A stretch of DNA of 64,000 nt from an uncultured Clostridia bacterium (GTDB taxonomy: Bacteria; Bacillota; Clostridia; Christensenellales; UBA1242). The notes under the pieces were generated by a model that worked only from the letters and a program-made list of their open reading frames with translations, did not search any database and was not told where the DNA came from. The translations under genes were made by a program, and so were the position numbers. Below, one piece after another: positions 17,153 through 59,629 of this stretch. The stretch spans positions 217 to 64,216 of the forward strand of contig CAKNIB010000008.1 of the NCBI GenBank assembly GCA_930979925.1, given 5' to 3'. Every line of letters starts with the position of its first letter. Within the stretch, counting starts at the first letter, position 1.

Positions 17153-20100
17153 ATGAGAAGTGTATTTAGATTTTTATCATACTCTTTATTATACATTATC
17201 ATTGCGGTGGCTTCAGCGTATGGGGTCATCACTATTTCTATGAGCAATTATACTAGAGAGCTTAACGCGTCAAATAATAGCGGTGGTGGGTCGCAAGAGA
17301 TTGTTATACCAGAAGAGATTTCTTCCATGTTTGAAAAAATCACCTCCTCCCCGGCGCTTGGAATAGAACTTGAAGTTGGCGTGCAGGCGGGAGAGACTAA
17401 TATCGACATCCTTGTTGACGGCGAAGTTGACTTGTCAGCAGGGGTTGATAACCTTGCCGTAGCTGCAGACATAGCCATACTTTTAAATGGCAGTCCTATA
17501 AATCTTGACCTAACTTATCAAAACGGTAACCTATATCTTGAGATGTTAAACAACAAGTTCTTTATAGCAACCGATAATTTGCTAAGCTCGGTAGACCAAA
17601 TCATGACACTACTTAACGTTGAAATGCCTGAGCTTGGTATCGACCTTGATAGTCTGTCGCTTGACACTATTATGGGCTTCTTTGCAAATTATGAGGAAAG
17701 TGTCAATGAAGATGGAAGCTTAACTCTTAGTGTTGCCCTTCCAGTTGGAGACAACATCAATCTTGAGCTTATTACAACATCTGACTATACCTTAACTGGA
17801 ATTGGTCTTGAGCCAATCAGTATTGAAGGCACAAGCATTGAGGCGCAAGGACAATTACACTATCTTGTAGAGTCAAGCATTCCTACTTTAGATAGTGAAG
17901 ACTACATTGACCTTACAAATGTAATTGATTTAGCTTGTGGTGTTATCAACTATGTAAAACAAGACAACTTTGCGCTGGAGCTAAACTTTAAATATCAAGA
18001 TGTTGTTTTAAATGGCGACATTCTATTCTCGCTAAATGATAAGAAGGCGCTTGTAAAGTTAAATATTGAGGAATATGCTGTCAACCTATTATATATAGAT
18101 AATAATATATATTTAGAATTTAACAATATATTTGTTAAGTTTGACCTTAGTCAGACAAATCAGCTTTTTGAGCTTTTGAGTAAGTATTTTGACATTGATA
18201 TCCCAAGTCAACTTATCTCTTCAATATTTGGAGCTATTGAAAGTGGCGATTTCTCTGAAGTTATTGATAGCGCTGGGCTAGCAGATTTTGACCTTACTCA
18301 ATTTGATTTTTCTAGCATTGACCTTGGCATTCTTAATAGCATAGAAAAAAACGGCAATATTACCACAATATCAATCGAGGAAATCGGAGATATATTGGTA
18401 ACCATTGACCAAGGCAGTTTATCGCAGATTGCTTTTGATGGTTTTGGAATAGAGGCAGATTTAAGCGTAATTGACTACTACGAGTACAGTTTATCGCAAA
18501 ACCAAGGCGACTATGCCGACATTAGCTTGTTATTACCAACCATCGATAATGTGCTCGGATTGCTTCAAAACAACACCTACTCTGGCGTGATTTCTGCCAA
18601 AATTGGCGATTTTAACCTCGATATAAACTATCTTTTACACCGTGGAGAGAGTACGTTTATTACCCTGTCAACAACTTTACTCGGACAGGACATCAAGGCA
18701 ACTGTTATTGATGGCAAAATATATGTTGAGATTTCTGATAGCAAAATTGTAGCTACTCTTGATAATCTTGGAAATGTAATAAATCAGCTTGTTTCAACCT
18801 TCAGTAATAGTCAGGCTGTTGGTGGTAATGGTGAAAGTCAGCTAATAGATGTTGACAGTATCCTTGATAGCTTGCTTGAAATAATTAACCCTGATGTAAA
18901 CCCTAAACTTATCACTAAATTTACCACAACTGAAAATGGTGTTGCTATTACCCTTCTTGATAAATATAACATTACCCTTTCAAACTTCTCAAATCAACTT
19001 GATGTTGCGTTTAACTACGACAGCATTGACGTTAAAATAAACGTTATTGGAAGTGAGCAAAATATTGTAGCTCCTGTATTAAACGATGAAGAATATACTC
19101 CTATCGAGGACATCGCAAACACTATAATCAATGTTTACAACTATGTGCTTGATGGTAAGTTCTATATTAGTCTTAATGCAAGCTATAAAGATTTAGTTGT
19201 AAGTGGCGGTATCAACTATGATGAGAGCGGTTTGAGTGCTACTATCACCCTAACCTATAAGAATTTAACCGCAAATGTGATATTCTATGAAAATAGTTTG
19301 TATGTTACAGCTGAGAATATCAAACTTGTATTTAACCTTGACGATATTGACTACGTAAAAGCATTCTTAAATGACTACTTCGGATTGGATATCGAGAGCA
19401 TGCTTCAAGAGCTTTTAAGTGGAGAGCAAAATAGTGATGTAACTGAAGACGGAAAAACTTCTGAAAGCGTTGAGGAGGCTTCTGACAACAAGCTGCTTGA
19501 TATGCTAAGTGGACTTCTTGGAGAAAAGTCGATTGAGGAGATTATTGCTGAGGCAAAACTTGCAATCACTTCTGACAATATCTCTTTAACTGCGCTTGAT
19601 GGGCTTCAAGTTGACATCCTTTTAAGTGGCAATATGATTGACCAACTCGCAATCAAGTATCAAGATATCTCTGCAAGTGCAAGCATCAACAAAGAGCCAA
19701 TCAGTATTGGTGTCAACGCAAGTGAGTATTACAATATTATTGACCTTGTTGACATCGTCAAAGGTGGAGTTGACCTTGCAAGGCAAAAGCAAATAGGTTT
19801 AAGTTATGATGTGACCTATAAAGAAATTGCTCTTTCTGGCAATATATACCTTGACCTTGAAAGTAAGTCGGCAAAAATAGTTGTAAATTACAAAGATATT
19901 ACTGCTAACGTTATTCTTATTGATAATGTGCTCTATCTTGAAGCGTATAACCTTTATGCAAAATTTGGGCTTAGTGATATTGGAAATGTTACTTTGCTTA
20001 TTGAAAAGTACTTCGGTGTTGATATGCCTGATGAGCTTATTGCAAAACTTGTCTCTGTAATAGAAAGTGGTGACTTATCACAACTTTTAGAGAGCATTGA

Positions 20101-23100
20101 CACCTCAAGTGTTGACCTTTCTTCTATCGACCTCTCAGTTGTAGAAGGCATTGTAAAAGTTGAAGACAAAACTATAGTTTCTTTAGCTGATATTGGAGAC
20201 ATAACAATATCTATGACTGAAGGCAAGTTAAACTCTGTAGGCTTTGTTGGCTTTGATATTACTGTAAATATATCAACAAGCACATATCAGACAATTTCTC
20301 TTTACTCACCTATTGAAAGCTATATTGACATAGCTGACCTCTTGCCTACCCTTGACAATATCTTAGCGATACTACAAAATAACACCTTCTCTGGAAAGAT
20401 TAACCTAATTTATGGTGACTACTCGTTTGATGTTGACTATATAATTCATACTGGAGATAACTCTTTTGTAACGCTTTCAACTACCATATTTGGTCAAAGC
20501 ATTGTAATTAACATTATTGAGAATAAAGTCTATATAGATGTTAGCGAGAGCAAAATTGTATGTGACCTTGACAATATCGGCAATGTTATCGATAAAATTT
20601 TGGCTAAATTTATGCCAGAGCAAGAAGCGCCAAGTTTTGATTTAAAAGAAGAGCTTGATAGTCTCTTGGATGTAAACAACAATCCACTTCTTATCACAAG
20701 TTTTGTAAAGAGTGAAAATGGCATAAGTCTTGCTATCCTTGACAAAATATTTGTATCGCTTGGCAATGGTGATAAATCCTTGACCATCGATGCTAATTAT
20801 CAAAACATTGACATTTCTGCAAGTTTAAAAGCAAGTGAAGAAACATTAGCTCGTCCTGAAATTGTCGGACAGTATACTCAGATTGAAAATATTGTAGATA
20901 CTGTCATAAATGTATATGATTATGTTGCAAGCAAAACCTTCTATGTATCATTTAATGCAAGTTATCAGGATATCGCGCTTGTTGGTGGAGTCAACTATGA
21001 CGAAAGTGGTTTGAGTGCTACTGTTACCCTAACCTACAAGAATTTAACCGCAAATATTATACACTATCAAAACAGCTTATATATCACAGCTGAGAATATC
21101 AAACTTGTATTTGACCTTGACGACATTGACTACGTAAAAGCATTCTTAAATGACTACTTTGGACTAGATGTTGAGAGCATGCTTCAAGAGCTTTTAAGTG
21201 GCTCTAAGCCAAGTGAAGATGTAGCAAGTGAAGAAACTCAAGATGTAGCTAACGAAACAGCTTCTGAAAGCGGGCTACTTGATATGCTAAGTGGTCTACT
21301 TGGTGGTAAGTCAATTGAGGAGATTGTTGCTGGAGCTTCATTTAAAATAACTGACAATATTATTAGCCTAACTTCTCTTGATGGTCTAAAAATAGACATA
21401 TCTCTTGAAAATAATATGATTTCAACTGCATATGTTGAGTATATATTGCAAAGAGAAAGCGACAACAGTGCAACTGAAAGTGAGCCCGCAAGTCAATCAA
21501 AGATTATTTTTAATGCTACGATTGAAGATAGTCCACTTGTGTTTAACCCTGTTGGAGAGTTTACTGATGTTGCTGGTATTCTTAATTATGTTGAGCTTTT
21601 CATGCAATATGTTGAGACCAAAAAGCTTGAGCTTGGAGTTGACCTAAATATTGATGATGACAATATAACTGGAGCGCTTCAACTTGATTTAACCTCTACC
21701 CTAATGATGAGCGCAAGTTTGACATCAAATACTATAGAAAACTTTGATATCAATATTAACATTGAAAAAGACGAGACTGGAAAGCAAATGCTGTACGTCG
21801 ATTATAGCGGACTTTGTCTCAAGATTGACAACTCAAACTTCAATGAAATACTTTACATTCTACTTGAAGTGCTTGGTATTGATACAACAAAGATACCTTT
21901 CTTAAGCGAAATAGACCTTGACCTTAACTTCTCGCAAATTGACACAGACATTGCAAGTATTGACCTCTCTATCGAAGATATTATAAACATGCTTAAGATG
22001 GTTAAGAGCATAAAAGATGAGAATAATGCCCTTGTCATCACGCTTGATGGAGGAGCAATCTTTGGTAACGATAATGCTGAAGACCTTATGATTTCTCTTC
22101 ACAAAGAAGGCGGGAAGATTAGCAAGCTTGTCATTGCAAACTGCTACCTTAACAGCGAGCTTTCTGGCAAGATTGGTGCTACTATTACCTTTAATGAAAT
22201 CACTGAGTTTAAGCATGTTGATAATAGCAAAAATTATATTGATATCTCTGGTTCTAATGAGCTTATTAAAGCGATTGTCAATATGTCAAACGACACCGAC
22301 TTCCATGTGCACGGTTCGCTAAATGTTGTTGGAAACCTAGCTGGAATTGAAATCAAATGGAATGTTCCTTTTGATATCTACATTAAAGCTGTTGCTAAAG
22401 GTAAAGTTGAAATTTATGGCGTTATTGGTGAAATTCCAACCATGGTTGGTGTTAACAATGATGTGCCTTACAAGTTTGATGACACAGAAAGTGGCTCGAA
22501 TAGATATCTTTACTTCTATTATCAAGACGATTATATCTACCTTTATAGGTCGGAGACTATTGGTCAATTCTTTGGTAGTGGCAGGACCTATGAAAAATGT
22601 ACTAAAGTTTCTGTAGACACCTTCTTTGGCAATATTATGTATTATGTGCAATATTGTTTCGGCTTCACTGATACAATTATGAATGCAATCATTGAGTCTA
22701 TGAACAATCCACGTACTGAGCCTATGGATATGAGCAATATCATTACTTCCTTCGTGGTACAGGATAACACTAATTTTGCTGTTGAGCTCAATATGCATGA
22801 GCTTACTAACAACCCTGACCTTGACAAGTTGAGTCTTACCCTTGGGCTTAGACAGGATAGTGAAGGCAAAAACTACATTGGCGATATGACCGTTGCGCTT
22901 AATATGCCTCTTGCTGATATCTTTACCCTATATCTAACTAGCGATGATATCACTTTGGTTGATTATGGTAAAGAAGTTGATATGACTCCGCTGTATGATT
23001 TTATTAACAACTATAAATACCCTAACGAGTCTGAGTGGGAAGCAAGTGATGGCGAGTGGAACATGGTATCAGAGACGCTCTACACCATTAACTTTGAAAG

Positions 23101-24313
23101 CAATAGTGAGCAGACAATATCTTCTCAAACATATCACTATAAAGACGCGCTTGAGCTGCCAGTTTTAAGTGATTATGTTGTAGATGATGGCAAAACTAAC
23201 ACCTATTACCACTTCGTTTCTTGGCATACAAGTGAGGATTTGTCAAATGAAAGCGTATTTGACTCAACCACAATGCCTCGTGGTGATATAACGCTATATG
23301 CTAAGTGGACTACTAATACCACAACCTACTACACAATAGATTTTGTTACAAATAGTGAGCAGAAATTTGATAGCATAACTAAGCTTGAGGGCGAGGCAAT
23401 CACTCTGCCTGTACTTACAACAAAAGAGGAATCTGACGAAAACACTACCACCTATTATGAGTTTGGTGGATGGTATACCACTTCAACCTTTGACGAGGGA
23501 AGTGAGTTTAACGAAAGCATTATGCCTTCAAATAATGTCACACTTTACGCAAAGTGGAATCTTGTTAAAACTGAGTATACTCGTTCGGTTAATATCTATG
23601 ATGGCGACCAACTTTTAACAACATTGCGTGTTAAAGCGGGAGACGTGATAGACTTCTCTACCCTTTCAAATGTAAGTGACACTACTAAGTTCTATTATGA
23701 CAAAGAGTTTAAAAATCAGATGGTTGATTTCACAATGCCTGATAATGATATAAATGTCTATATTAGAAATATGTACAAAGTTACATTTACAAGCTTGTAT
23801 GGCAATACCTCGACTGTTACCTACTCACTTTATCAAGGCGAAAGCATTACTGAGTTGCCAGCTCAATCAAGTTATGTCTATGATGATGGCACGCAAACAG
23901 TACAGACAACTTATACCTTTAACGGATACAATGTGACAACAAATGTTATGCCAAATCATGATGTGACTTTTGAAGCTGACTGGACTGTGACTGAGAAAAA
24001 GTATTACACTATCACTTTTGATATTCTTGACAATGATGTGTCTCTTCATATTAGTCCATGGAGAGGCAACGCAAAACTCTATTATAATGGAGTGGAAACA
24101 TCTACTATGTCTTATCGCTTCCTTGAAGGACAGGTTGACTTAAATGCTTTTGTAGCTAGATGTAAATATAGAGCAGTTCTTTATTACTATTATATCTTCC
24201 AAGGTTGGAAAGGTGCTGACGAAAACGGATACTACAATTTAACTGGTGATGTAACCATTGAAGCGTCCTTCTCATCGTTACAATCTGGTAAGGATGGATA
24301 TGATAGAAACTAA
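17153..24313 (+). CDS. giant (2386 aa) N-terminally membrane-anchored repetitive surface protein with C-terminal Listeria-Bacteroides (Flg_new) repeats
   Basis: Uninterrupted 7.2-kb ORF with RBS AAGGAT. N-terminal TM is FLSYSLLYIIIAVASAYGVITI. There is a ~590-600-aa tandem super-repeat. Five C-terminal repeats have the pattern YTINF..G....Y.F.GW.....F.....MP..DITLYAKW. Confidence 0.85.
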   Translation: MRSVFRFLSYSLLYIIIAVASAYGVITISMSNYTRELNASNNSGGGSQEIVIPEEISSMFEKITSSPALGIELEVGVQAGETNIDILVDGEVDLSAGVDNLAVAADIAILLNGSPINLDLTYQNGNLYLEMLNNKFFIATDNLLSSVDQIMTLLNVEMPELGIDLDSLSLDTIMGFFANYEESVNEDGSLTLSVALPVGDNINLELITTSDYTLTGIGLEPISIEGTSIEAQGQLHYLVESSIPTLDSEDYIDLTNVIDLACGVINYVKQDNFALELNFKYQDVVLNGDILFSLNDKKALVKLNIEEYAVNLLYIDNNIYLEFNNIFVKFDLSQTNQLFELLSKYFDIDIPSQLISSIFGAIESGDFSEVIDSAGLADFDLTQFDFSSIDLGILNSIEKNGNITTISIEEIGDILVTIDQGSLSQIAFDGFGIEADLSVIDYYEYSLSQNQGDYADISLLLPTIDNVLGLLQNNTYSGVISAKIGDFNLDINYLLHRGESTFITLSTTLLGQDIKATVIDGKIYVEISDSKIVATLDNLGNVINQLVSTFSNSQAVGGNGESQLIDVDSILDSLLEIINPDVNPKLITKFTTTENGVAITLLDKYNITLSNFSNQLDVAFNYDSIDVKINVIGSEQNIVAPVLNDEEYTPIEDIANTIINVYNYVLDGKFYISLNASYKDLVVSGGINYDESGLSATITLTYKNLTANVIFYENSLYVTAENIKLVFNLDDIDYVKAFLNDYFGLDIESMLQELLSGEQNSDVTEDGKTSESVEEASDNKLLDMLSGLLGEKSIEEIIAEAKLAITSDNISLTALDGLQVDILLSGNMIDQLAIKYQDISASASINKEPISIGVNASEYYNIIDLVDIVKGGVDLARQKQIGLSYDVTYKEIALSGNIYLDLESKSAKIVVNYKDITANVILIDNVLYLEAYNLYAKFGLSDIGNVTLLIEKYFGVDMPDELIAKLVSVIESGDLSQLLESIDTSSVDLSSIDLSVVEGIVKVEDKTIVSLADIGDITISMTEGKLNSVGFVGFDITVNISTSTYQTISLYSPIESYIDIADLLPTLDNILAILQNNTFSGKINLIYGDYSFDVDYIIHTGDNSFVTLSTTIFGQSIVINIIENKVYIDVSESKIVCDLDNIGNVIDKILAKFMPEQEAPSFDLKEELDSLLDVNNNPLLITSFVKSENGISLAILDKIFVSLGNGDKSLTIDANYQNIDISASLKASEETLARPEIVGQYTQIENIVDTVINVYDYVASKTFYVSFNASYQDIALVGGVNYDESGLSATVTLTYKNLTANIIHYQNSLYITAENIKLVFDLDDIDYVKAFLNDYFGLDVESMLQELLSGSKPSEDVASEETQDVANETASESGLLDMLSGLLGGKSIEEIVAGASFKITDNIISLTSLDGLKIDISLENNMISTAYVEYILQRESDNSATESEPASQSKIIFNATIEDSPLVFNPVGEFTDVAGILNYVELFMQYVETKKLELGVDLNIDDDNITGALQLDLTSTLMMSASLTSNTIENFDININIEKDETGKQMLYVDYSGLCLKIDNSNFNEILYILLEVLGIDTTKIPFLSEIDLDLNFSQIDTDIASIDLSIEDIINMLKMVKSIKDENNALVITLDGGAIFGNDNAEDLMISLHKEGGKISKLVIANCYLNSELSGKIGATITFNEITEFKHVDNSKNYIDISGSNELIKAIVNMSNDTDFHVHGSLNVVGNLAGIEIKWNVPFDIYIKAVAKGKVEIYGVIGEIPTMVGVNNDVPYKFDDTESGSNRYLYFYYQDDYIYLYRSETIGQFFGSGRTYEKCTKVSVDTFFGNIMYYVQYCFGFTDTIMNAIIESMNNPRTEPMDMSNIITSFVVQDNTNFAVELNMHELTNNPDLDKLSLTLGLRQDSEGKNYIGDMTVALNMPLADIFTLYLTSDDITLVDYGKEVDMTPLYDFINNYKYPNESEWEASDGEWNMVSETLYTINFESNSEQTISSQTYHYKDALELPVLSDYVVDDGKTNTYYHFVSWHTSEDLSNESVFDSTTMPRGDITLYAKWTTNTTTYYTIDFVTNSEQKFDSITKLEGEAITLPVLTTKEESDENTTTYYEFGGWYTTSTFDEGSEFNESIMPSNNVTLYAKWNLVKTEYTRSVNIYDGDQLLTTLRVKAGDVIDFSTLSNVSDTTKFYYDKEFKNQMVDFTMPDNDINVYIRNMYKVTFTSLYGNTSTVTYSLYQGESITELPAQSSYVYDDGTQTVQTTYTFNGYNVTTNVMPNHDVTFEADWTVTEKKYYTITFDILDNDVSLHISPWRGNAKLYYNGVETSTMSYRFLEGQVDLNAFVARCKYRAVLYYYYIFQGWKGADENGYYNLTGDVTIEASFSSLQSGKDGYDRN

Positions 24314-25649: not shown

Positions 25650-25678
25650 AAAAAAGGAAGAAATGTCGTTTTCTTCCC
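25650..25678 (-). terminator. intrinsic terminator after LRR gene A
   Basis: Minus strand: GGAAGAAA-ACGACA-TTTCTTCC followed by TTTTT. Confidence 0.65.
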
Positions 25679-25699
25679 TTTATTGTCTAATTATAGCTA

Positions 25700-26773
25700 T
25701 TAAGCTATTGCGGTGATTTTGTCAGCGTAACTAGACCAGACACTTGCCGTTTTGTATGCGTCCACACTCTCTGCTGGAACGTAGATATTGGTTAATTTTG
25801 GCACTATAGATAATGTAGCTGAATTTAGTGTAGGAGGAATGCTTGCAAAAGATGTTATAGATATTAAATTTGTGCAATTTTGAAAAGCCATATCTCCTAT
25901 ACTTAATATCGTTTTAGGTAATTCAATAGATATCACACTATAACATTCTTGAAAAGCCATATAACCTATACTCTCGACACCATCTGGAATATCTATATTT
26001 GTTAAATTTTCACAAGCCATAAAAGTAAAGTCACCTATTTTTTTTAAGTTTGATCCATTCTCTGTAATAAAGTATTTTAAATTTTTACAATTATAAAGTG
26101 ACATGCTGGCAGTTTCTGTTACAGGATATGTTTTCCCATCTAGTTCATTTATTATAGTTGCAGGAATAATAGCGATTTCTGCAATATCTTTGTTTAAACA
26201 GTTAGTTATTCTAGCTTCAGAATCACTGAAAGAATACTCTAGCTCGGCTAAAACACCATTATAAATATTTATAGTAATCATAGATAAATCTATTTCTGCA
26301 AGGTTTGGATTTATAACCTGTAGTTCTAATGTAGTTGTAACTTCAGTTGTAGACGTTATCTCGGTGATCGTCTCAGAGTTTGCAGTAATCATGTTAGTTA
26401 TATATACCTCAACTCCTGATACACTACTACTTAACTCGCTATAATCAGCAGTGACAATATAAGAATCAGTAGTGGTATTTATTATATCAAAATACAATGC
26501 AAATGAGCCGTGGTTGTTTTCAAAATTTCCTACATTAAAGTTAAAGTCGCCATTGATGTATCCTGGAGTAAAGTTTAAAACAACTACTGGGTCAGAACCC
26601 GACTCTTGCATCCTTACCTCTTTGACCCATAGGCTTTTATCGGTTACGTTAAAGTTAACACTACCATTCATAGTAATCGTTTGACTGCTTGCGGCAAGTA
26701 CTCCTGTTATAACTAATCCTAGTACTAATACAAATGCCCCTACTAAAGATATTAGTTTCATCCTTATGCTCAT
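25700..26773 (-). CDS. secreted BspA-type leucine-rich-repeat (LRR_5) protein, paralog A
   Basis: 357 aa. Signal-like N-terminus is [27 protein letters not shown] conserved ~170-aa N-terminal domain is shared with 46932-47897. C-terminal repeats include IGDFTFMACENLTNIDIPDGVESIGYMAFQEC..ISIELPKTILSIGDMAFQNCTNL. Confidence 0.85.
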   Translation of the reverse strand: MSIRMKLISLVGAFVLVLGLVITGVLAASSQTITMNGSVNFNVTDKSLWVKEVRMQESGSDPVVVLNFTPGYINGDFNFNVGNFENNHGSFALYFDIINTTTDSYIVTADYSELSSSVSGVEVYITNMITANSETITEITSTTEVTTTLELQVINPNLAEIDLSMITINIYNGVLAELEYSFSDSEARITNCLNKDIAEIAIIPATIINELDGKTYPVTETASMSLYNCKNLKYFITENGSNLKKIGDFTFMACENLTNIDIPDGVESIGYMAFQECYSVISIELPKTILSIGDMAFQNCTNLISITSFASIPPTLNSATLSIVPKLTNIYVPAESVDAYKTASVWSSYADKITAIA

Positions 26774-26795
26774 TTTATCTCTCCTTTTAATTTTT

Positions 26796-26820
26796 GCGCC
26801 TTCGGCGCCGGCTAAAAAAT
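26796..26820 (-). promoter_or_regulatory. conserved GC hairpin block in the 5' UTR of LRR gene A
   Basis: GCGCC-TTC-GGCGC plus the flank GGCTAAAAAAT. An almost identical block lies at 48036-48060 upstream of paralog B. Confidence 0.5.
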
Positions 26821-26854
26821 AGAAAAATTATATCTATATTTTTAGTGATACTCT

Positions 26855-26882
26855 ATATTACCCCCCCCGAATTTTTTGTCAA
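26855..26882 (-). promoter_or_regulatory. promoter TTGACA-16-TAATAT with a G8 tract in the spacer
   Basis: Minus strand reads TTGACA AAAAATTCGGGGGGGG TAATAT. The C8 run occupies 26861-26868 on the plus strand. It lies ~80 nt upstream of ATG 26773. Confidence 0.55.
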
Positions 26883-27016
26883 GCAAAATTGCGTCATTTT
26901 CGAAAAATGTTTTAAAAACTTAAATTGTAAAAAAAATAAAAACAATTTAATAAGAAAAATGAAGCTTACCTATGCAAGCAGTATCAGCGTTTGCGTTTTG
27001 TTGTCTTCTTAAATAT

Positions 27017-27134
27017 GAGGCTTGCCTATTGTTAACTTTTAATGAAAAGTTAACAATAGAATGTTGTGACAGTCGAAGATTGGCACAACATAAAAGATAC
27101 CGAAGGGTTTTCCTTCGGTCTCTTTGCAAGCCTC
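27017..27134. repeat. 118-nt conserved structured element (closing stem plus three hairpins), copy A
   Basis: GAGGCTTGC...GCAAGCCTC encloses hairpins at 27026-27059, 27062-27090 and 27095-27123. About 83% identical to 48537-48654, with compensatory changes in the stems. Confidence 0.6.
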
Positions 27135-27138
27135 GTGG

Positions 27139-28140
27139 CTATGTGTTTTCGTAAATCTTTTTGAGAAGGTCGGGGTCGTCAAGCAGTTTGCCAGCGCCTA
27201 GGATTGAAACATTCTCGCCGTCCTCTACTATCTTAAATGGATAGCGAAAATGCGTCTTTAAGTAATGCTCAAGTCCTGCTATTTGGCTCATTCCGCCAAC
27301 AAAAATTACCCCATTATTTATAATATCTGTGGTTATCTCTGGCGGAAGAGAGGTTATTGTTACGTCTATCGACCTTATTATCTCGTCAAAGAAAGGCTCT
27401 AGAACAACCAATAAATCATTTGAGGAGATTATATATGAACGTGGAATTTTGCTCTCTATATCCACGCCATTGACCTCCATATTTAAGGTATCATTTGGAT
27501 AGAGACTGCCAACCTCGCGTTTTAGTTTTTCGCTGGTGCCAAGACCGATTACAAGTCCATGGTTATATGCAATGGTGTTTGCAATGGCTACGTCAACTGC
27601 CCGTCCGCCTAGTCCAAGCGTGGCACCCTTTAAAATGGAATTCATATTAATTACTGCTATATCGGTGTTTGCACCACCAATATTGACTATCATATTTGTT
27701 TTAGTTGAGCTTATATTCTTGCCCGCTCCAATACATGAGCATATGACGGTAGGAATTAGAATAACCTCTTTAAACCCGATTTCATACAAGAGTGTCAAAA
27801 ACTGGTCTTTATCGTTTTGGCTCAGTCCGCAGTTTACAAGCACCATGATTGAGTCTCTTTTCTTTTTAAAATCAAGTTTATCAAAAAAGTACACAAGAAG
27901 CGCCTTAAGGTATTCATAATTTTTTATTTGACCGTTAGAGACTGGGCTAAAAACCTCCACACTATCATTGGTCTTGCCCATCATAGCTTTAGCTTCTTGT
28001 CCAAGACCTATTATTTGGTAGCCTTGAGGAGTTGGCTCTGCTGCCACAAGTGTTGGCTCGCAAAGTGCAAAGCCATTGTCTTTTACATAAATCTTTGTAT
28101 AAGACCCGCCTATTTCTATAGCATATTTGTATTTTACCAT
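27139..28140 (-). CDS. mreB: MreB-family actin-like protein (divergent)
   Basis: 333 aa. VNIGGANTDIAVIN, LGLGGRAVDVAI and GVIFVGGMSQIAGLEHYL align with MreB phosphate/adenosine motifs. N-terminal DLGT is replaced by EIGGS. Confidence 0.8.
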   Translation of the reverse strand: MVKYKYAIEIGGSYTKIYVKDNGFALCEPTLVAAEPTPQGYQIIGLGQEAKAMMGKTNDSVEVFSPVSNGQIKNYEYLKALLVYFFDKLDFKKKRDSIMVLVNCGLSQNDKDQFLTLLYEIGFKEVILIPTVICSCIGAGKNISSTKTNMIVNIGGANTDIAVINMNSILKGATLGLGGRAVDVAIANTIAYNHGLVIGLGTSEKLKREVGSLYPNDTLNMEVNGVDIESKIPRSYIISSNDLLVVLEPFFDEIIRSIDVTITSLPPEITTDIINNGVIFVGGMSQIAGLEHYLKTHFRYPFKIVEDGENVSILGAGKLLDDPDLLKKIYENT

Positions 28141-34695: not shown

Positions 34696-35211
34696 TTAGT
34701 CGTCATCGTCGTCGTAGTCAAAGTCGTCATCATCGTCTAGGTCGTCGTCATCGTCAAAGTCATCGTCGTCATCATCTTCGTCGCTATCTTCGTCGTCAAA
34801 CTCTTCATCACCAAACTCTAAACCTGAGTCGTCATCGTCAAAGTCTATATCGTCAGTGATATCATCGTCATCGAGTAGGCTTGACTTTGTAATGTCATTA
34901 ACGGATGCCATGTCCCCTGTCTCATCGTCTATGGTCATGATATCGTCTTCGTCATCTCTAACTACATAGTCTTCCCAATCAGAATTGAGCTCGCCATCCT
35001 CGTTTTGGTGTTCCTTCAAACAGCTGGCACACATAATCTCGTCTGGTTGGATATAGTTTGTTCGGCATATTGGGCAAAGCTCTAAGTCAATATCGTCAAC
35101 ATAATCTTTCTTAGCTTCCATTTCTGCCTTGCAAACAGGACAGAATTTATCCTTCTTCTGTATATAATTTAGTTCACATCTAGGACATCTAATATAAACT
35201 GGTTTTTTCAT
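34696..35211 (-). CDS. double zinc-ribbon protein with an extremely acidic poly-Asp C-terminal tail
   Basis: 171 aa with RBS AAGGAG. Contains CPRC..17..CPVC and CPIC..13..CASC. The last ~100 aa are dominated by D/E and end in DDDDDFDYDDDDD. Confidence 0.7.
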   Translation of the reverse strand: MKKPVYIRCPRCELNYIQKKDKFCPVCKAEMEAKKDYVDDIDLELCPICRTNYIQPDEIMCASCLKEHQNEDGELNSDWEDYVVRDDEDDIMTIDDETGDMASVNDITKSSLLDDDDITDDIDFDDDDSGLEFGDEEFDDEDSDEDDDDDDFDDDDDLDDDDDFDYDDDDD

Positions 35212-37656: not shown

Positions 37657-39312
37657 CTAGTCAAGAGTGACAATAGTCAAAATCATTGGACGGCGTTTGG
37701 TGCGTCTAAAAATAAAGTTTGATACGTTACGGCGAAGAGATGCCCTGATAACTGATGGTTCTACGCCACGAAGATCGCTTTCCTTAAGTGATGCGATGAT
37801 GCATGCCTTAGCATCTTGTACAAAGCTCTCCTGCTCGTCTGCATATACAACGCCACGGGTTATGATAAATGGGTCACTTGTAACCTCGCCTGCAACATTA
37901 TTGATGTTTACGCAAACTACGCAAATACCATCTTCTGAAAGCTGTTTGCGCTCTCTTAGAACATTGCTATCCATGTCACCTATACCAATACCATCAACGA
38001 GGCGTTGACCTGCCTTTACAAAGCCAACCTCTTTGATTGAGTTAGGTCCAAGCTCCACCTGCATACCTATGCTTGGTAAAAGTATATTTCTTGCGTCCAC
38101 ACCAAGTGTCATAGCAAGCTCCTTATGAGTTTTAAGGTGTCTATACTCGCCGTGGATTGGCATGAAAAACTTAGGTTTTACAAGGCTATGCATGAGTTTG
38201 AGCTCCTCTTGGCAAGCGTGCCCTGAGGTGTGTACCTTTTCAAGTTCATCATATATTACGTCAGCGCCCAATTTGTATAGTGCATTTATTACGTTGTAAA
38301 CATTTTTCTCGTTGCCTGGAATTGGCGATGCTGAGAGAATTACTAGGTCATTTGGTCTAATCTTTACGCTCTTAAATTCGCCAGCTGCCATACGAGTAAG
38401 TGCGCTCATTGGCTCGCCTTGGCTTCCAGTTGTCATGATAAGAATTTCTTTATCGTCAAGTTTGTCGACCTTGTCAATATCAACAATATTGTCGCGATTA
38501 AAGGTGAGCTCACCTATCTTCATTGCAACTTCGCTGACATTTATCATGCTTCTGCCTGTAAAGGCGATTTTGCGATTATATTTTTCTGCAATATCCATAA
38601 TCTGTTGCATACGATGGATGTTTGATGCAAAAGTAGCAACAATAATTCTATTATTTGCGTGATTTTTAATAATTTCGTCGAGTGTACGACCTACTGACTT
38701 TTCACTCATAGAATAGCCTGGTCGGCAAACGTTGGTGCTTTCGCAAAGAAGAAGGCTTACTCCCTTTCTACCTATTTCACCAAGGCGAGAGATATCTGTC
38801 ATAACGCCGTCGATTGGCTCGTAATCTATTTTAAAGTCACCAGTGTGGACTACAGTGCCTACTGGAGTTGTAATTGCAAGTGCAAGTGAGCCTGCAATTG
38901 AGTGGCTAACCTTGATAAATTCTATTGAAAACGAGCCTATTTTGAGAACATTTTTTGGCTTAACTGAAATTGCCTTGTATTTTACGTTTGGATGCTCCTT
39001 CATCTTGTTGTCAACAAGAGCAAGTGTAAGTCTAGTACCATAGATTGGCACATTAATCTGCTCAAGTAAAAATGGAACAGCACCTATGTGGTCCTCATGC
39101 CCATGCGTCAAAAGTAGCGCTTTGATTTTGCTTTTGTTTTCAATTAGGTAGGTCATATCTGGGATGACGATATCCACGCCTGGAAGGTCATCATCTGGGA
39201 AGGTTAAACCTGCATCAACGATAACGATTTCATCATTATACTCAAGTGCGGTCATATTTTTACCTATTTCGCCTACCCCACCTAAAAAAGTAATTTTTAA
39301 TTTATTATTCAC
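37657..39312 (-). CDS. rnj: ribonuclease J
   Basis: 551 aa. LGGVGEIGKNM, the beta-lactamase motif LTHGHEDHIGA, a beta-CASP region and HTSGHA. Confidence 0.92.
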   Translation of the reverse strand: MNNKLKITFLGGVGEIGKNMTALEYNDEIVIVDAGLTFPDDDLPGVDIVIPDMTYLIENKSKIKALLLTHGHEDHIGAVPFLLEQINVPIYGTRLTLALVDNKMKEHPNVKYKAISVKPKNVLKIGSFSIEFIKVSHSIAGSLALAITTPVGTVVHTGDFKIDYEPIDGVMTDISRLGEIGRKGVSLLLCESTNVCRPGYSMSEKSVGRTLDEIIKNHANNRIIVATFASNIHRMQQIMDIAEKYNRKIAFTGRSMINVSEVAMKIGELTFNRDNIVDIDKVDKLDDKEILIMTTGSQGEPMSALTRMAAGEFKSVKIRPNDLVILSASPIPGNEKNVYNVINALYKLGADVIYDELEKVHTSGHACQEELKLMHSLVKPKFFMPIHGEYRHLKTHKELAMTLGVDARNILLPSIGMQVELGPNSIKEVGFVKAGQRLVDGIGIGDMDSNVLRERKQLSEDGICVVCVNINNVAGEVTSDPFIITRGVVYADEQESFVQDAKACIIASLKESDLRGVEPSVIRASLRRNVSNFIFRRTKRRPMILTIVTLD

Positions 39313-39546
39313 ATTATCCTCCTTGTTATGTAAATTACTTATTTGTTATGTAGGTTTTTTTTGGCTCTTTACTGCATAAAAAAGCCATAGAAAAATGTTG
39401 TTTATTACAAAATTTTCAGGCTACAGGAAAACGAGCGAGGCAAGGCTCGGAAAATGCTCAAAGCCAGGAGTTTAGTAAGCCTAAATGACTGGTTTTGAGC
39501 GTTTTACAGTAAACGCAGCATCGCGACGTTTTAGTGCAGTCTGAAA

Positions 39547-40467
39547 CTATAAAATGTATTTTGCATCCTCAATCTTGTCAACCTCTTCGAGTTTCTTTGG
39601 TGACAAAATTGTATCACTGTCAACATAAAATCTCATGCCTTGACTTGAGAAGAACATTACCATCTCAAAAATATGAAGTAGTGGTGATATTAGTGGCAAT
39701 ATTATGATAATTGAGTAAAGTCCAAGCACGATAGAAAGCACTATTGCAAGCAAGAAGATTATAAAGGCAGTTGAAAATACCCTTGCTCCACGTCTTAGTA
39801 CTGCGCGCATTCCTATTGAGAAAGACTTGAATACATTTTGATTATACACCACCTTTGCTGGTGCCCAACCACCCGTAAAGGTCTCTTTAAACGCCATAAG
39901 TAGGGCTGGAACAATTACAAAGACAAAAGGCATGATATAATCAAAAACTTGATTATTTATCCTTGTTAAACCCCACATGCTTAGCACTATTATAGCGTTA
40001 AATGGCAAGGAATAAAGAACTTTTAATGCTGAGTAGCCAAAAGCTTTAAGTGATTTTAAATAGGTGCCGGTGAAACTTTGTTTTGTGCAGGAAGACATAT
40101 AGCCATACATCATCTCGCAGGTAACATATTTGCCTTGATTTATAAGAAGTGGAAAGATGATAAAGGTTATGATGACAAAATAAATTCCTATGCCAACATT
40201 TGTAAAAATCTCTCTAAAAAAGATTATTACAAAGTCGGCTACAGCGGTCAGACCATTGGCTATTGACGAGCCATAAAGAGTACCAGTCGCAAAAAAGCTT
40301 GATAAATTTGACTCCTCATAGGCAAGAGAGCCGGCGTCAATATAATAATTATAAAATATTGCAAGAAGTGCCACGCATACGCCAATCGATAAAATATGGT
40401 AAACAAGAAGTTTCCATACCTTATCAAAATTAGCACATAATAGTCTTACAGAATTTTTAAACATCAT
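39547..40467 (-). CDS. polytopic membrane protein, function unknown
   Basis: 306 aa with at least 6 hydrophobic segments. No recognised motif. Confidence 0.6.
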   Translation of the reverse strand: MMFKNSVRLLCANFDKVWKLLVYHILSIGVCVALLAIFYNYYIDAGSLAYEESNLSSFFATGTLYGSSIANGLTAVADFVIIFFREIFTNVGIGIYFVIITFIIFPLLINQGKYVTCEMMYGYMSSCTKQSFTGTYLKSLKAFGYSALKVLYSLPFNAIIVLSMWGLTRINNQVFDYIMPFVFVIVPALLMAFKETFTGGWAPAKVVYNQNVFKSFSIGMRAVLRRGARVFSTAFIIFLLAIVLSIVLGLYSIIIILPLISPLLHIFEMVMFFSSQGMRFYVDSDTILSPKKLEEVDKIEDAKYIL

Positions 40468-46931: not shown

Positions 46932-47897
46932 TTATGTTCTAGACATTCCGTAAACGCCAGAAGAACCTTTCAGCCATTCGGCAGCAGTTGATGGATCTGC
47001 AAGAGTTTCTTCATCAATATCTCCATGTGCAAATGTCCAGCCTGTTGGAATCTCATAGTAAGCTAAAGCTAAACTATTGCAATTAGTGAAGGCACCAGAA
47101 CCGATGGCTGTCACACTCGATGGAATTGTTATTGAGGTTAAACTGCTACAACCACTGAAAGCATATCCTCCAATACTTGTCACACTATCTGGGATTGTAA
47201 TTAATGTTAAACTACTACATCCGCCGAATGCATTATTACCAATGGCTGTCACTGTAGCAGTTCGTCCATTATACTGAACTGTTTCAGGAATGATTACAAC
47301 TTCTGCATCTGGACTACAACTTGCAACACTTACACTTTGTCCACTTCCACTATTAAGTGAATAGGTTAATGTACCTAAAACGGTTTCATTGATATTTATT
47401 GTTATCATTGATAAATCTATATTTTCAAGATTTGGGTTTGATACAGTTAACTCTAATGTTGTTGTAATAGGTGTTTCTGAGGTTATAGTTGTTACAGTCT
47501 CTGTATTTGCTGAAATTAGGTTAGTTATATTTATCTCTATACCAGTTATACTACTTAGTCCACTATAATCTACATTAACTAAATAAGTGTTAGTTGTAGT
47601 ATTTATTATATCAAAATACAATGCAAATGAGCCTCGGTTATTATTATGATCGCCTACATTAAAGTTAAAGTCTCCGTTGATGTAGCCTGGAGTAAAGTTT
47701 GAGATTATGACTGGGTCCTCTCCTGCCTCTTGCATTCTAACCTCTTTTACCCATAGGCTTTTATCATTTACATTAAAGTTTACACTACCATTCATGGTTA
47801 TTGTTTGACTACTTGCGGCTAGCACTCCAGCTACTACCAGTCCAAGGACTAGAATAAAAGCACTTATTAATGACAGCAGTTTTAATTTGATTGACAT
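46932..47897 (-). CDS. secreted BspA-type leucine-rich-repeat (LRR_5) protein, paralog B
   Basis: The ORF opens at 47909, but GGAGG precedes ATG 47897 (MSIKLKL...). The N-terminal ~170 aa are ~70% identical to paralog A. The C-terminus has [59 protein letters not shown]. Confidence 0.85.
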
Positions 47898-48035
47898 TTT
47901 TACCTCCATTTTCTTTAGTATTTGATAAATTATTTAAATTATTACCTAGTTTACAATCTTATTTTATATTTAAAAATAATTGTCACTTGGGTGACGATTT
48001 AGCAAATTTCAAAGAATTTAAAATTTGCTAATTTC

Positions 48036-48060
48036 GCGCCTTCGGCGCGGGCTAAAAAAT
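48036..48060 (-). promoter_or_regulatory. conserved GC hairpin block in the leader of LRR gene B
   Basis: (C)GCGCC-TTC-GGCGC(G) plus GGCTAAAAAAT, matching 26796-26820. Confidence 0.5.
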
Positions 48061-48395
48061 ATTTTACATTTCGCGTTATGCTATAACACCCCTTGCGTCT
48101 AACCCCATAAAATCTCACGATTTTATGGGCACCCGACCGGGTCCTTATTACGAAGAAAATTCCAGAGGAATTTTCGAGGAGGTCGGAGGGGGAGTTCTAC
48201 CCCACAAATTATAAAATTTGTGGGGAGCCCCGGGGTGGGGAACCGAAAATATTTTTTATCACGAAGTGTAAAAAATATGTGTTTTAGCGGTTAGACGCGC
48301 ATAAGCGCGTCGTGCCCGCGTTTCATTTTTCTTAAATTAAAAAATTTAAGAAAAATGATAAAACTTGGGTTCCACCCTAAAAGCGATAGCTTATT
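48061..48395. other. ~335-nt GC-rich, hairpin-dense insertion between promoter and GC hairpin of LRR gene B (structured RNA or MITE-like element)
   Basis: Perfect hairpins lie at 48105-48128, 48155-48175, 48200-48225, 48294-48311 and 48323-48358. There is a 10-nt long-range complement between 48095-48104 and 48289-48298. Absent from the equivalent position of copy A, where only 34 nt (26821-26854) occupy this position. Confidence 0.5.
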
Positions 48396-48420
48396 TTACC
48401 CCCCCCGAATTTTTTGTCAA
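48393..48420 (-). promoter_or_regulatory. promoter TTGACA-16-TAAAAT with a G8 tract in the spacer (twin of 26855-26882)
   Basis: Minus strand reads TTGACA AAAAATTCGGGGGGGG TAAAAT. The C8 run occupies 48399-48406 on the plus strand. Confidence 0.5.
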
Positions 48421-48536
48421 GCGATTTTACGCTATTTTTGAAAATTGTTGAAAATTTTTGCATGAATTCTTAATTTCAAAATCTTTTATACGACCGCATG
48501 AAGCGAGCGTGATGGATTTGGTGTCACGCCAAGCAT

Positions 48537-48654
48537 GAGGCTTGCCTATTGTCAGCTTTTATAAAAAAGTTGACAATAGAATGTTGTGACAACCAAAGGT
48601 TATTACAACATAAAAGAGACCGAAGAATTTTTCTTCGGTCTCTTTGCAAGCCTC
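48537..48654. repeat. 118-nt conserved structured element, copy B
   Basis: Same length and architecture as 27017-27134. Lies 138 nt downstream of the groEL stop. Confidence 0.6.
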
Positions 48655-48791
48655 GTGACTGAGGTGTTAAAATAAAACTCTTGTCTCGTGGCTGATATTA
48701 TACTAAACTGATGATATACTAAAATGTAGTTTATGTTATATTAATAATAATGATTGATAAGTATGACAACTATTAATAATCAACTCTATTA

Positions 48792-50414
<1,623 letters not shown>

Positions 50415-59555: not shown

Positions 59556-59629
59556 TGGCAGGGGTGGTAGGAGTTGAACCCACCTCAGGAGTTTTGGAGA
59601 CTCTTATTCTACCGATGAACTACACCCCT
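59556..59629 (-). tRNA. trnW: tRNA-Trp (anticodon CCA), CCA end encoded
   Basis: Hand-folded cloverleaf. Acceptor stem AGGGGTG/CACCCCT, anticodon loop CUCCAAA, T-loop TTCAACT, discriminator G, then CCA. Confidence 0.85.

Follow-up and report, generated by a model that had tools for sequence, protein, structure and literature searches.

A sequence of 118 nt occurs twice in the window (the whole stretch of 64,000 nt of DNA analysed here), and in both places it can be folded into a closing stem, P1, that encloses three hairpins, hp1, hp2, and hp3. Which function does such a fold serve, and on which strand, or in which nucleic acid, is it used? In an earlier note on this DNA the two copies (here A and B) were taken as a sign of selection on secondary structure, of either an RNA or a DNA cruciform. 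The host lineage consists of uncultured, low-GC (36%) Clostridia that form spores and are known solely from ENA and Logan assemblies.

The fold and its conservation

Copies A and B have the same length, as had been noted, and are aligned over 118 nt without gaps; their identity, put at ~83% before, comes to 85.6% on recount (101 of 118 positions). The common shape is also confirmed. Both copies fold as P1 GAGGCTTGC/GCAAGCCTC around the three hairpins, with a P1 of 9 bp, stems of 15, 14, and 14 bp in hp1, hp2, and hp3, respectively, and linkers of 0–1 nt (Table 1). The minimum free energy (MFE) is -62.2 kcal/mol for copy A and -67.9 kcal/mol for copy B, with z-scores of -13.4 and -15.0, and none of 200 dinucleotide shuffles folds equally well. 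When the whole window was scanned in segments of 118 nt, the two copies were the most stable segments found (about -60 and -57 kcal/mol at the element sites vs. a mean of -19.7 and an sd of 6).

Seventeen positions differ between A and B. Six of them make up three double changes, from T-A to C-G at pairs 17/36 of hp1 and 57/63 of hp2 and from G-C to A-T at the terminal pair 90/96 of hp3, and five lie in loops; two more mend one mismatch, pair 82/104 of hp3 being T.C in A and G-C in B. These compensatory changes and the mended mismatch had all been recognized earlier. Absent from that account were three single changes between Watson-Crick and G.U pairs (positions 19, 56, and 68 in the + strand reading) and one change that creates a C.A mismatch at 54/66 in copy B. 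The T.C mismatch of copy A (27098) is private to the window sequence, with G-C at this place in strains L001 and L045. A 60-aa open reading frame (26972–27154) spans copy A, and no ORF of at least 50 aa overlaps the element in copy B, for which reason a small ORF across the element was rejected.

Table 1. Positions of the element copies, their parts, and associated features in the window.
Feature	Position	Strand	Basis or remarks
Element copy A	27017..27134	.	fold, z-score, inverted repeats, covariance model match of 134.6 bits
Copy A, P1	27017–27025/27126–27134		
Copy A, hp1	27026–27059		
Copy A, hp2	27061–27091		
Copy A, hp3	27093–27125	- (gene-sense)	GC-rich stem then ATCTTTTATG; terminator scan
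Conserved 31-nt extension beside copy A	26986..27016	.	repeat family, alignments
Promoter of copy A LRR gene	26855..26882	-	TTGACA-16 nt (AAAAATTCGGGGGGGG)-TAATAT; sequence motif
Secreted BspA-type LRR protein gene (357 aa), downstream of copy A	25700..26773	-	Pfam LRR_5, E = 2.7e-20
mreB, upstream of copy A	27139..28140	-	Pfam MreB_Mbl, E = 9e-69
1447-bp unit (element, promoter, leader, LRR gene)	25693..27139	-	empty-site alignments with L055 and L065
Ancestral mreB terminator	25650..25678	-	GGAAGAAA..TTTCTTCC then T run; conserved in L055 and L065
Element copy B	48537..48654	.	fold, inverted repeats, covariance model match
Copy B, P1	48537–48545/48646–48654		
Copy B, hp1	48546–48579		
Copy B, hp2	48581–48611		
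Copy B, hp3	48613–48645	- (gene-sense)	15-bp stem then TATGTTGTAA; terminator scan
Conserved 31-nt extension beside copy B	48506..48536	.	repeat family, alignments
Promoter of copy B LRR gene	48393..48420	-	TTGACA-16 nt-TAAAAT, G8 tract as in A; sequence motif
Paralogous LRR protein gene (325 aa), downstream of copy B	46932..47909	-	Pfam search
groEL, upstream of copy B	48792..50405	-	Pfam Cpn60_TCP1

The search proposed in the earlier note, with a covariance model built from the two copies (R1), was run on contigs encoding homologues of the LRR proteins found beside the element. The element was detected after mreB in near-identical strains (L001, L003, L004, and L045), after groEL in two relatives (L005 and L043), and as two diverged copies in tandem on contig L046. 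Related metagenome contigs thus gave five further distinct sequences, and in these the fold is kept; substitutions breaking the stems, which had been named as counter-evidence, were not encountered. In the case of the first L046 copy (L046:2257–2370), P1 is the same as in A and B and hp1 is strongly rewritten. The second (L046:2043–2155, hereafter L046 copy 2) is changed in sequence in all four helices with pairing kept. Its P1, CAACTCTTG/CAAGAGTTG, differs from that of A and B at seven of nine pairs and still pairs, over arms that lie 100 nt apart, and the order hp1-hp2-hp3 and the linkers of 0–1 nt are preserved.

In an alignment of seven distinct sequences, few and related and fitted to the model, 98.9% of cells are standard pairs and 21 of 50 pairs have both-sided changes. 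Slid partners give 0–4 both-sided pairs, and the observed values are reached in none of 500 column shuffles. RNAalifold independently predicts the same structure from the alignment. The covariation of P1 comes from a single sequence, L046 copy 2, where a chance origin of a perfect 9-bp complement at exactly homologous positions is very unlikely. The stems are almost perfect throughout, the loops and linkers are variable, and there are almost no conserved unpaired bases. The pairing, the covariation relative to the controls, and the agreement of RNAalifold bear out the proposed selection on secondary structure: the element is a real fold held in shape by evolution.

The element has a rare and narrow distribution. 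The failure of the earlier note to place it in a named RNA family agrees with the Rfam search (4227 models), which covered the whole window at the gathering score, with no match at or near either copy, and in which nothing relevant was found at E ≤ 10 between 26700 and 27300; the best matches at E ≤ 10 were scattered microRNA and sRNA models of 10–18 bits. An improved covariance model (R2) found only copies A and B in the window, where it was run without filters, and no copies beyond the cassette-linked ones in ~218 kb of other paralogue and related mreB loci (104,705 and 113,038 bases). The exact P1 pattern had 25 matches in GTDB genomes, in unrelated taxa and with varied spacing, none of which fits the covariance model, and they are ascribed to chance. 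In JGI metagenomes a 22-mer gave no match, and six matches of a degenerate hp1-hp2-hp3 pattern were all rejected by R2. Exact-pattern scans of viral contigs gave no match, nor did blastn against phage and plasmid records. The element is accordingly a small, clean, covarying fold that is missing from Rfam and for which a covariance model, R2, exists.

The LRR gene unit and its insertion

All genes neighbouring the element copies are on the minus strand, and the order on that strand is upstream gene, element, spacer of 116–134 nt, near-consensus promoter, leader, and LRR gene. Copy A begins 4 nt past the mreB stop codon, P1 of copy B lies 137 nt from the groEL stop, and L046 copy 2 begins 8 nt past the stop of a gene for a beta-lactamase-fold protein (Lactamase_B). 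The genes flanking the copies are mreB, ppx, parA, groES/EL, and SDR. The two LRR proteins of the window are 56% identical (E = 3e-111) and combine a conserved domain at the N-terminus with BspA-type LRR_5 repeats.

The flanks of the two copies had been described as not conserved, which holds only for the ~50–70 nt that separate the block of the element from that of the promoter. Conservation extends 31 nt 5' of the element (repeat 26986–27140 vs. 48506–48660, 80%), returns in a 73-nt promoter block (79%) that includes a 25-mer identical at both loci, and is also found in the leader hairpin and the first ~180 codons of the LRR genes (56% amino acid identity). The 31-nt extension holds a small hairpin, TTGGTGTCACGCCAA, in copy B and L046. 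Because both flanks and LRR proteins are homologous, copies A and B are paralogous parts of a duplicated gene unit and not isolated islands.

At the mreB locus the unit is an insertion of 1447 bp, for which related species have no equivalent between mreB and parA. In relatives with MreB proteins 87–89% identical, ppx precedes mreB, and mreB is separated from parA by an AT-rich spacer of 120–175 nt and, after it, a terminator (GGAAGAAT..ATTCTTCC, then a T run); both the element and the LRR gene are missing there, and the mreB loci of 20 related-species contigs are empty sites in which the element was not found. Homology to the relatives ends at the mreB stop codon (27140) and restarts at 25692, 8 nt past the LRR stop, and copy A lies 4 nt from the edge of the insertion. 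The ancestral mreB terminator, which stands behind mreB in L055 and L065, lies past the LRR gene in the window.

At the groEL locus the window was compared with L005 and L043. Divergence is 22–31%, with indels, in the spacer between groEL and the element, 3.4–5.1% in the element, and 0–3.4% between the element and the promoter (116 nt, 96.6–100% conserved); it is 1.5% in the leader (L005) and 10–12% at third codon positions of groEL. In this comparison the element evolves at about half the rate of synonymous sites. Since divergence drops at the element, the element forms the outer limit of a block that is constrained or recently exchanged.

A homopolymer placed between the -35 and -10 boxes, with a length that varies between strains, is a classic arrangement for phase variation. 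Every member of the LRR/N-domain family examined has the promoter TTGACA-(A5-6 N TC)-G8-TA(A/T/C)(A/T)AT (in the window at 26858–26882 and 48396–48420, minus strand), and the G tract is G8 at most loci and G9 in L037 (L037:2710) and L044 (L044:114). Judged by this sequence, the promoter of the LRR unit is probably phase-variable. BspA-like families are phase-variable through simple repeats (PMC5476646). The common promoter is present upstream of the LRR paralogues (L006, L032–L042, and L047–48), and the element was not found in these regions. The element is considered optional for promoter function because L032, L036, L041, and L006 have the family promoter without a comparable structure upstream.

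Several further features of the units were recorded. The B-type LRR leader (47910–48390, minus strand) is ~480 nt long, has dense stable hairpins (z -5 to -6.5) and a 16-bp perfect AT-rich palindrome at 48323–48358, and has been conserved in L005, in L046, and in part in L006; that of the A type is only ~80 nt long. A groEL-linked cassette in L043 (L043:2776–3000) combines a B-type element and upstream region with the short A-type leader. This cassette is a chimera, which implies that paralogous cassettes have recombined at or near the common promoter. Beside copy B, the sequence CTCGTGRCTGA (48652–48662) abuts P1 and is repeated 33 nt off at 48685–48695, where in sense orientation it is followed by ACAAGAGTTTTATTTT. 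By its sequence, the repeat has the look of a second, incomplete element that has degenerated, and it recalls the tandem arrangement in L046.

Possible functions of the element

When hp3 is read on the gene-sense strand, its stem is preceded by an A-tract and contains a GC-rich core of 11 bp, GAGACCGAAGG/CCUUCGGUCUC, behind which stands UUUUAUGUUGU. A terminator scan of the minus strand flags 27119–27099 and 48645–48613, and hp3 is the first terminator-like site past the mreB stop codon (27139–27141) in copy A and the only one from the groEL stop (48792) to the promoter in copy B. The U-rich tail is kept in all lineages, as UUUUAUGUUGU or, in L046 copy 2, as UUUUAUUUUGUG; read directly on the + strand, the tail is only UUUGCAAG. 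At mreB, groEL, and the Lactamase_B gene of L046 alike, hp3 lies past the stop codon in the orientation of the gene. It thus looks, by anatomy, like a canonical intrinsic (Rho-independent) terminator of the gene-sense strand, and may be called a putative one.

The explanation preferred here, tentatively, is that the element is a terminator/insulator module shielding the probably phase-variable promoter of the BspA-like LRR unit. This structure-constrained module heads the unit, which encodes a secreted LRR protein. As the first hairpin on the minus strand, hp3 would end the transcript of the upstream gene, whether mreB, groEL, or the gene of the beta-lactamase-fold protein, and the unit, on its insertion between mreB and the terminator of mreB, would have carried a replacement stop signal along. 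The whole fold (hp3, hp2, hp1, and P1) would act as a transcriptional insulator: transcription running on from strongly expressed genes upstream would be kept from entering the promoter of the unit, and antisense transcripts leaving the promoter region might be blocked as well. This reading is favoured because a unit landing between a strongly expressed gene and the terminator of that gene needs a stop, particularly when its promoter is of the on/off type. The position at the cassette edge and the terminator-like hp3 on the gene-sense strand change the most likely function relative to the earlier note. If the proposal is correct, a surface-protein unit carries its own upstream terminator/insulator and could land behind very active housekeeping genes, groEL and mreB among them, with its promoter switch staying clean; it would be a counterpart in nature to the insulated parts known from synthetic biology.

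Were termination at hp3 efficient, hp2, hp1, and the 3' arm of P1 would be missing from the sense RNA, which would then not explain the covariation of these parts. On the + (antisense) strand, G.U pairs are found in six columns of the alignment, some of them kept in three orthologous sequences, and A.C in only two private cells of the seven-sequence alignment; the count of six events vs. two is not significant (one-sided binomial, ~0.15). The + strand folds 4–8 kcal/mol better than the minus strand in all five variants, whereas for the hairpins of the transcribed leader the sense strand gives the more stable fold. Both the G.U pairs and the energies of folding speak mildly for the antisense strand, and with it for an antisense RNA or a role as single-strand or cruciform DNA. 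GC skew was rejected as a guide to the direction of replication, as it tracks the gene strand and is uninformative.

These strand data bear on a possible, though somewhat unlikely, alternative, by which the element is a small non-coding RNA of ~120–160 nt that is made from the + strand and folds into a four-way junction. It would be transcribed divergently from the LRR promoter, antisense to the neighbouring genes, and would travel with the cassette. The G.U pairs and the more stable fold of the + strand are in its favour, and the full junction can form on this strand, which has no strong terminator ahead of the 3' arm of P1; the strong conservation of the 116 nt between element and promoter among orthologues also fits. 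However, no + strand sigma-70 promoter common to A, B, and the L046 copies was found, the + strand has no terminator after P1, and almost perfect stems with variable loops and linkers are unusual for a trans-acting RNA, while the G.U count, as said, falls short of significance.

A signal at the DNA level is unlikely. Here the nested palindromes would form extruded hairpins or a cruciform when the DNA is single-stranded or supercoiled, and would mark or stimulate the recombination by which LRR cassettes are moved or converted, with a logic like that of integron attC sites or the pilE G4 of Neisseria. The arms are near-perfect, the loops have 3–5 nt, and the element folds well as DNA (z -12 to -14). 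Its place at the edge of the 1447-bp insertion and at the outer limit of the conserved block at groEL is consistent with such a signal, as are the tandem copies in L046, the partial repeat beside copy B, and the exchange between cassettes evident from the L043 chimera. On the other hand, no recombinase was found among eight flanking proteins tested, the other end of the cassette has no matching site, attC core motifs are absent on direct reading, copy numbers found are only low, and family members without the element are dispersed around the genome as well.

The two preceding proposals may be combined into a portable folded signal of phase-variable adhesin cassettes in gut Clostridia, serving as an antisense four-way-junction RNA or as a DNA recombination site, which is rated as quite improbable. 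In its DNA form, a structure-defined hairpin or cruciform site with the logic of attC or the pilE G4 would mark or trigger cassette insertion and gene conversion; we know of no structure-defined recombination site in this group of Clostridia. Should the cloverleaf act in either way, as antisense RNA or as a signal for DNA recombination, it would represent a new class of structured element in the surface variation of uncultured gut Clostridia.

It is likewise rather improbable that only hp3 is functional, as a terminator, and that the rest is a palindromic relic with a symmetry kept by mutation and not by selection, through hairpin-templated 'quasipalindrome' correction during replication. Nearly perfect stems, freely varying loops, the near absence of conserved unpaired bases, and the optional presence of the element within the LRR gene family are what such a process would leave, but the complete covariation of P1 over 100 nt in L046 copy 2, the hairpin order and short linkers kept in a copy that has diverged in all helices, and an evolution about half as fast as that of synonymous sites argue against it.

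A miniature transposable element of the MITE or REP type, with P1 as terminal inverted repeat, would fit the 118-nt size, the inverted ends, the intergenic sites just past stop codons, and the tandem pair in L046, but is very improbable and was rejected, as the P1 repeats are not conserved (L046 copy 2) and P1 is ruled out as a transposase-recognized end because it varies between family members. Homology also runs ~30 nt past P1, and the searches with R2, exact patterns, and blastn described above gave no copies beyond two in 64 kb and the cassette-linked ones.

Comparison with known systems and other features of the window

When membership in known classes was considered, hp3 alone could be assigned, by its anatomy, to the intrinsic terminators. 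Intrinsic terminators, including tandem and bidirectional ones, share with it the GC-rich stem, the A-tract before, the U-rich tract after, and the position past stop codons. Here, however, the terminator-like hairpin belongs to a covarying four-way junction as one of its arms, the others being two hairpins of 14–15 bp and a closing stem, none of which simple termination needs. REP/BIME elements, the BOX and RUP elements of pneumococci, and the Correia elements of Neisseria are short, strongly folding intergenic elements near gene ends that can terminate or stabilize transcripts and have conserved ends and tens to hundreds of copies. The present element, by comparison, has two copies in 64 kb and a variable P1, and is fixed at the head of one type of cassette.

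Integron attC sites, of ~60–140 nt, are defined more by structure than by sequence and form the boundaries of gene cassettes. They have RYYYAAC/GTTRRRY core sites, extrahelical bases, and an unpaired central spacer, and are associated with an integrase and a cassette array. The element resembles them in being defined by structure, in its place at a cassette boundary, and in a possible single-stranded fold antisense to the neighbouring ORF, but has neither extrahelical bases nor an unpaired central spacer, and its cassette has its own promoter. Assignment to attC was rejected: direct reading of P1 and the sequence beside it in copies A and B and in the two L046 copies shows no RYYYAAC ... GTTRRRY, no integrase or cassette array is seen among the flanking genes, and there is no second site at the other end of the cassette. 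The pilE G4 of Neisseria is a G-quadruplex that initiates recombination upstream of the promoter of a variable surface-protein gene. Both are alternative nucleic acid structures upstream of such a promoter; the present one is a hairpin cloverleaf, with no sign of silent donor copies or of recombination starting there.

Other candidates were rejected as well. A tRNA-like cloverleaf is not recognized by ARAGORN or the Rfam tRNA model, which have their sole match in tRNA-Trp (59556–59629), and the arms of the element measure 9/15/14/14 bp as against 7/4/5/5 bp in tRNA. For a retron msr-msd RNA there is no reverse transcriptase gene downstream; the element is flanked by mreB or groEL on one side and by the LRR gene on the other. 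CIRCE, the groEL operator considered for the groEL neighbour, has the motif TTAGCACTC-N9-GAGTGCTAA, which is unrelated to P1 on direct reading. No named counterpart was found, in Rfam or among the known systems compared, for a four-way junction whose closing stem covaries; in the way it would work, the element comes closest to a compound terminator or insulator.

Elsewhere in the window, a long hairpin unrelated to the element (39405–39550, + strand; MFE -59.2 kcal/mol, z -8.5) sits in the gap between minus-strand genes at 37657–39312 and 39547–40467. A run of degenerate repeats of 9–15 nt (GTCGTCATC...) occupies 34699–34875, where a minus-strand reading would give an acidic low-complexity tract. 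A giant ORF of 2386 aa (17153–24313, + strand) has internal direct repeats ~1.78 kb apart, with 84% identity between 19160–19422 and 20939–21201 and 72% between 19478–19617 and 21260–21399.
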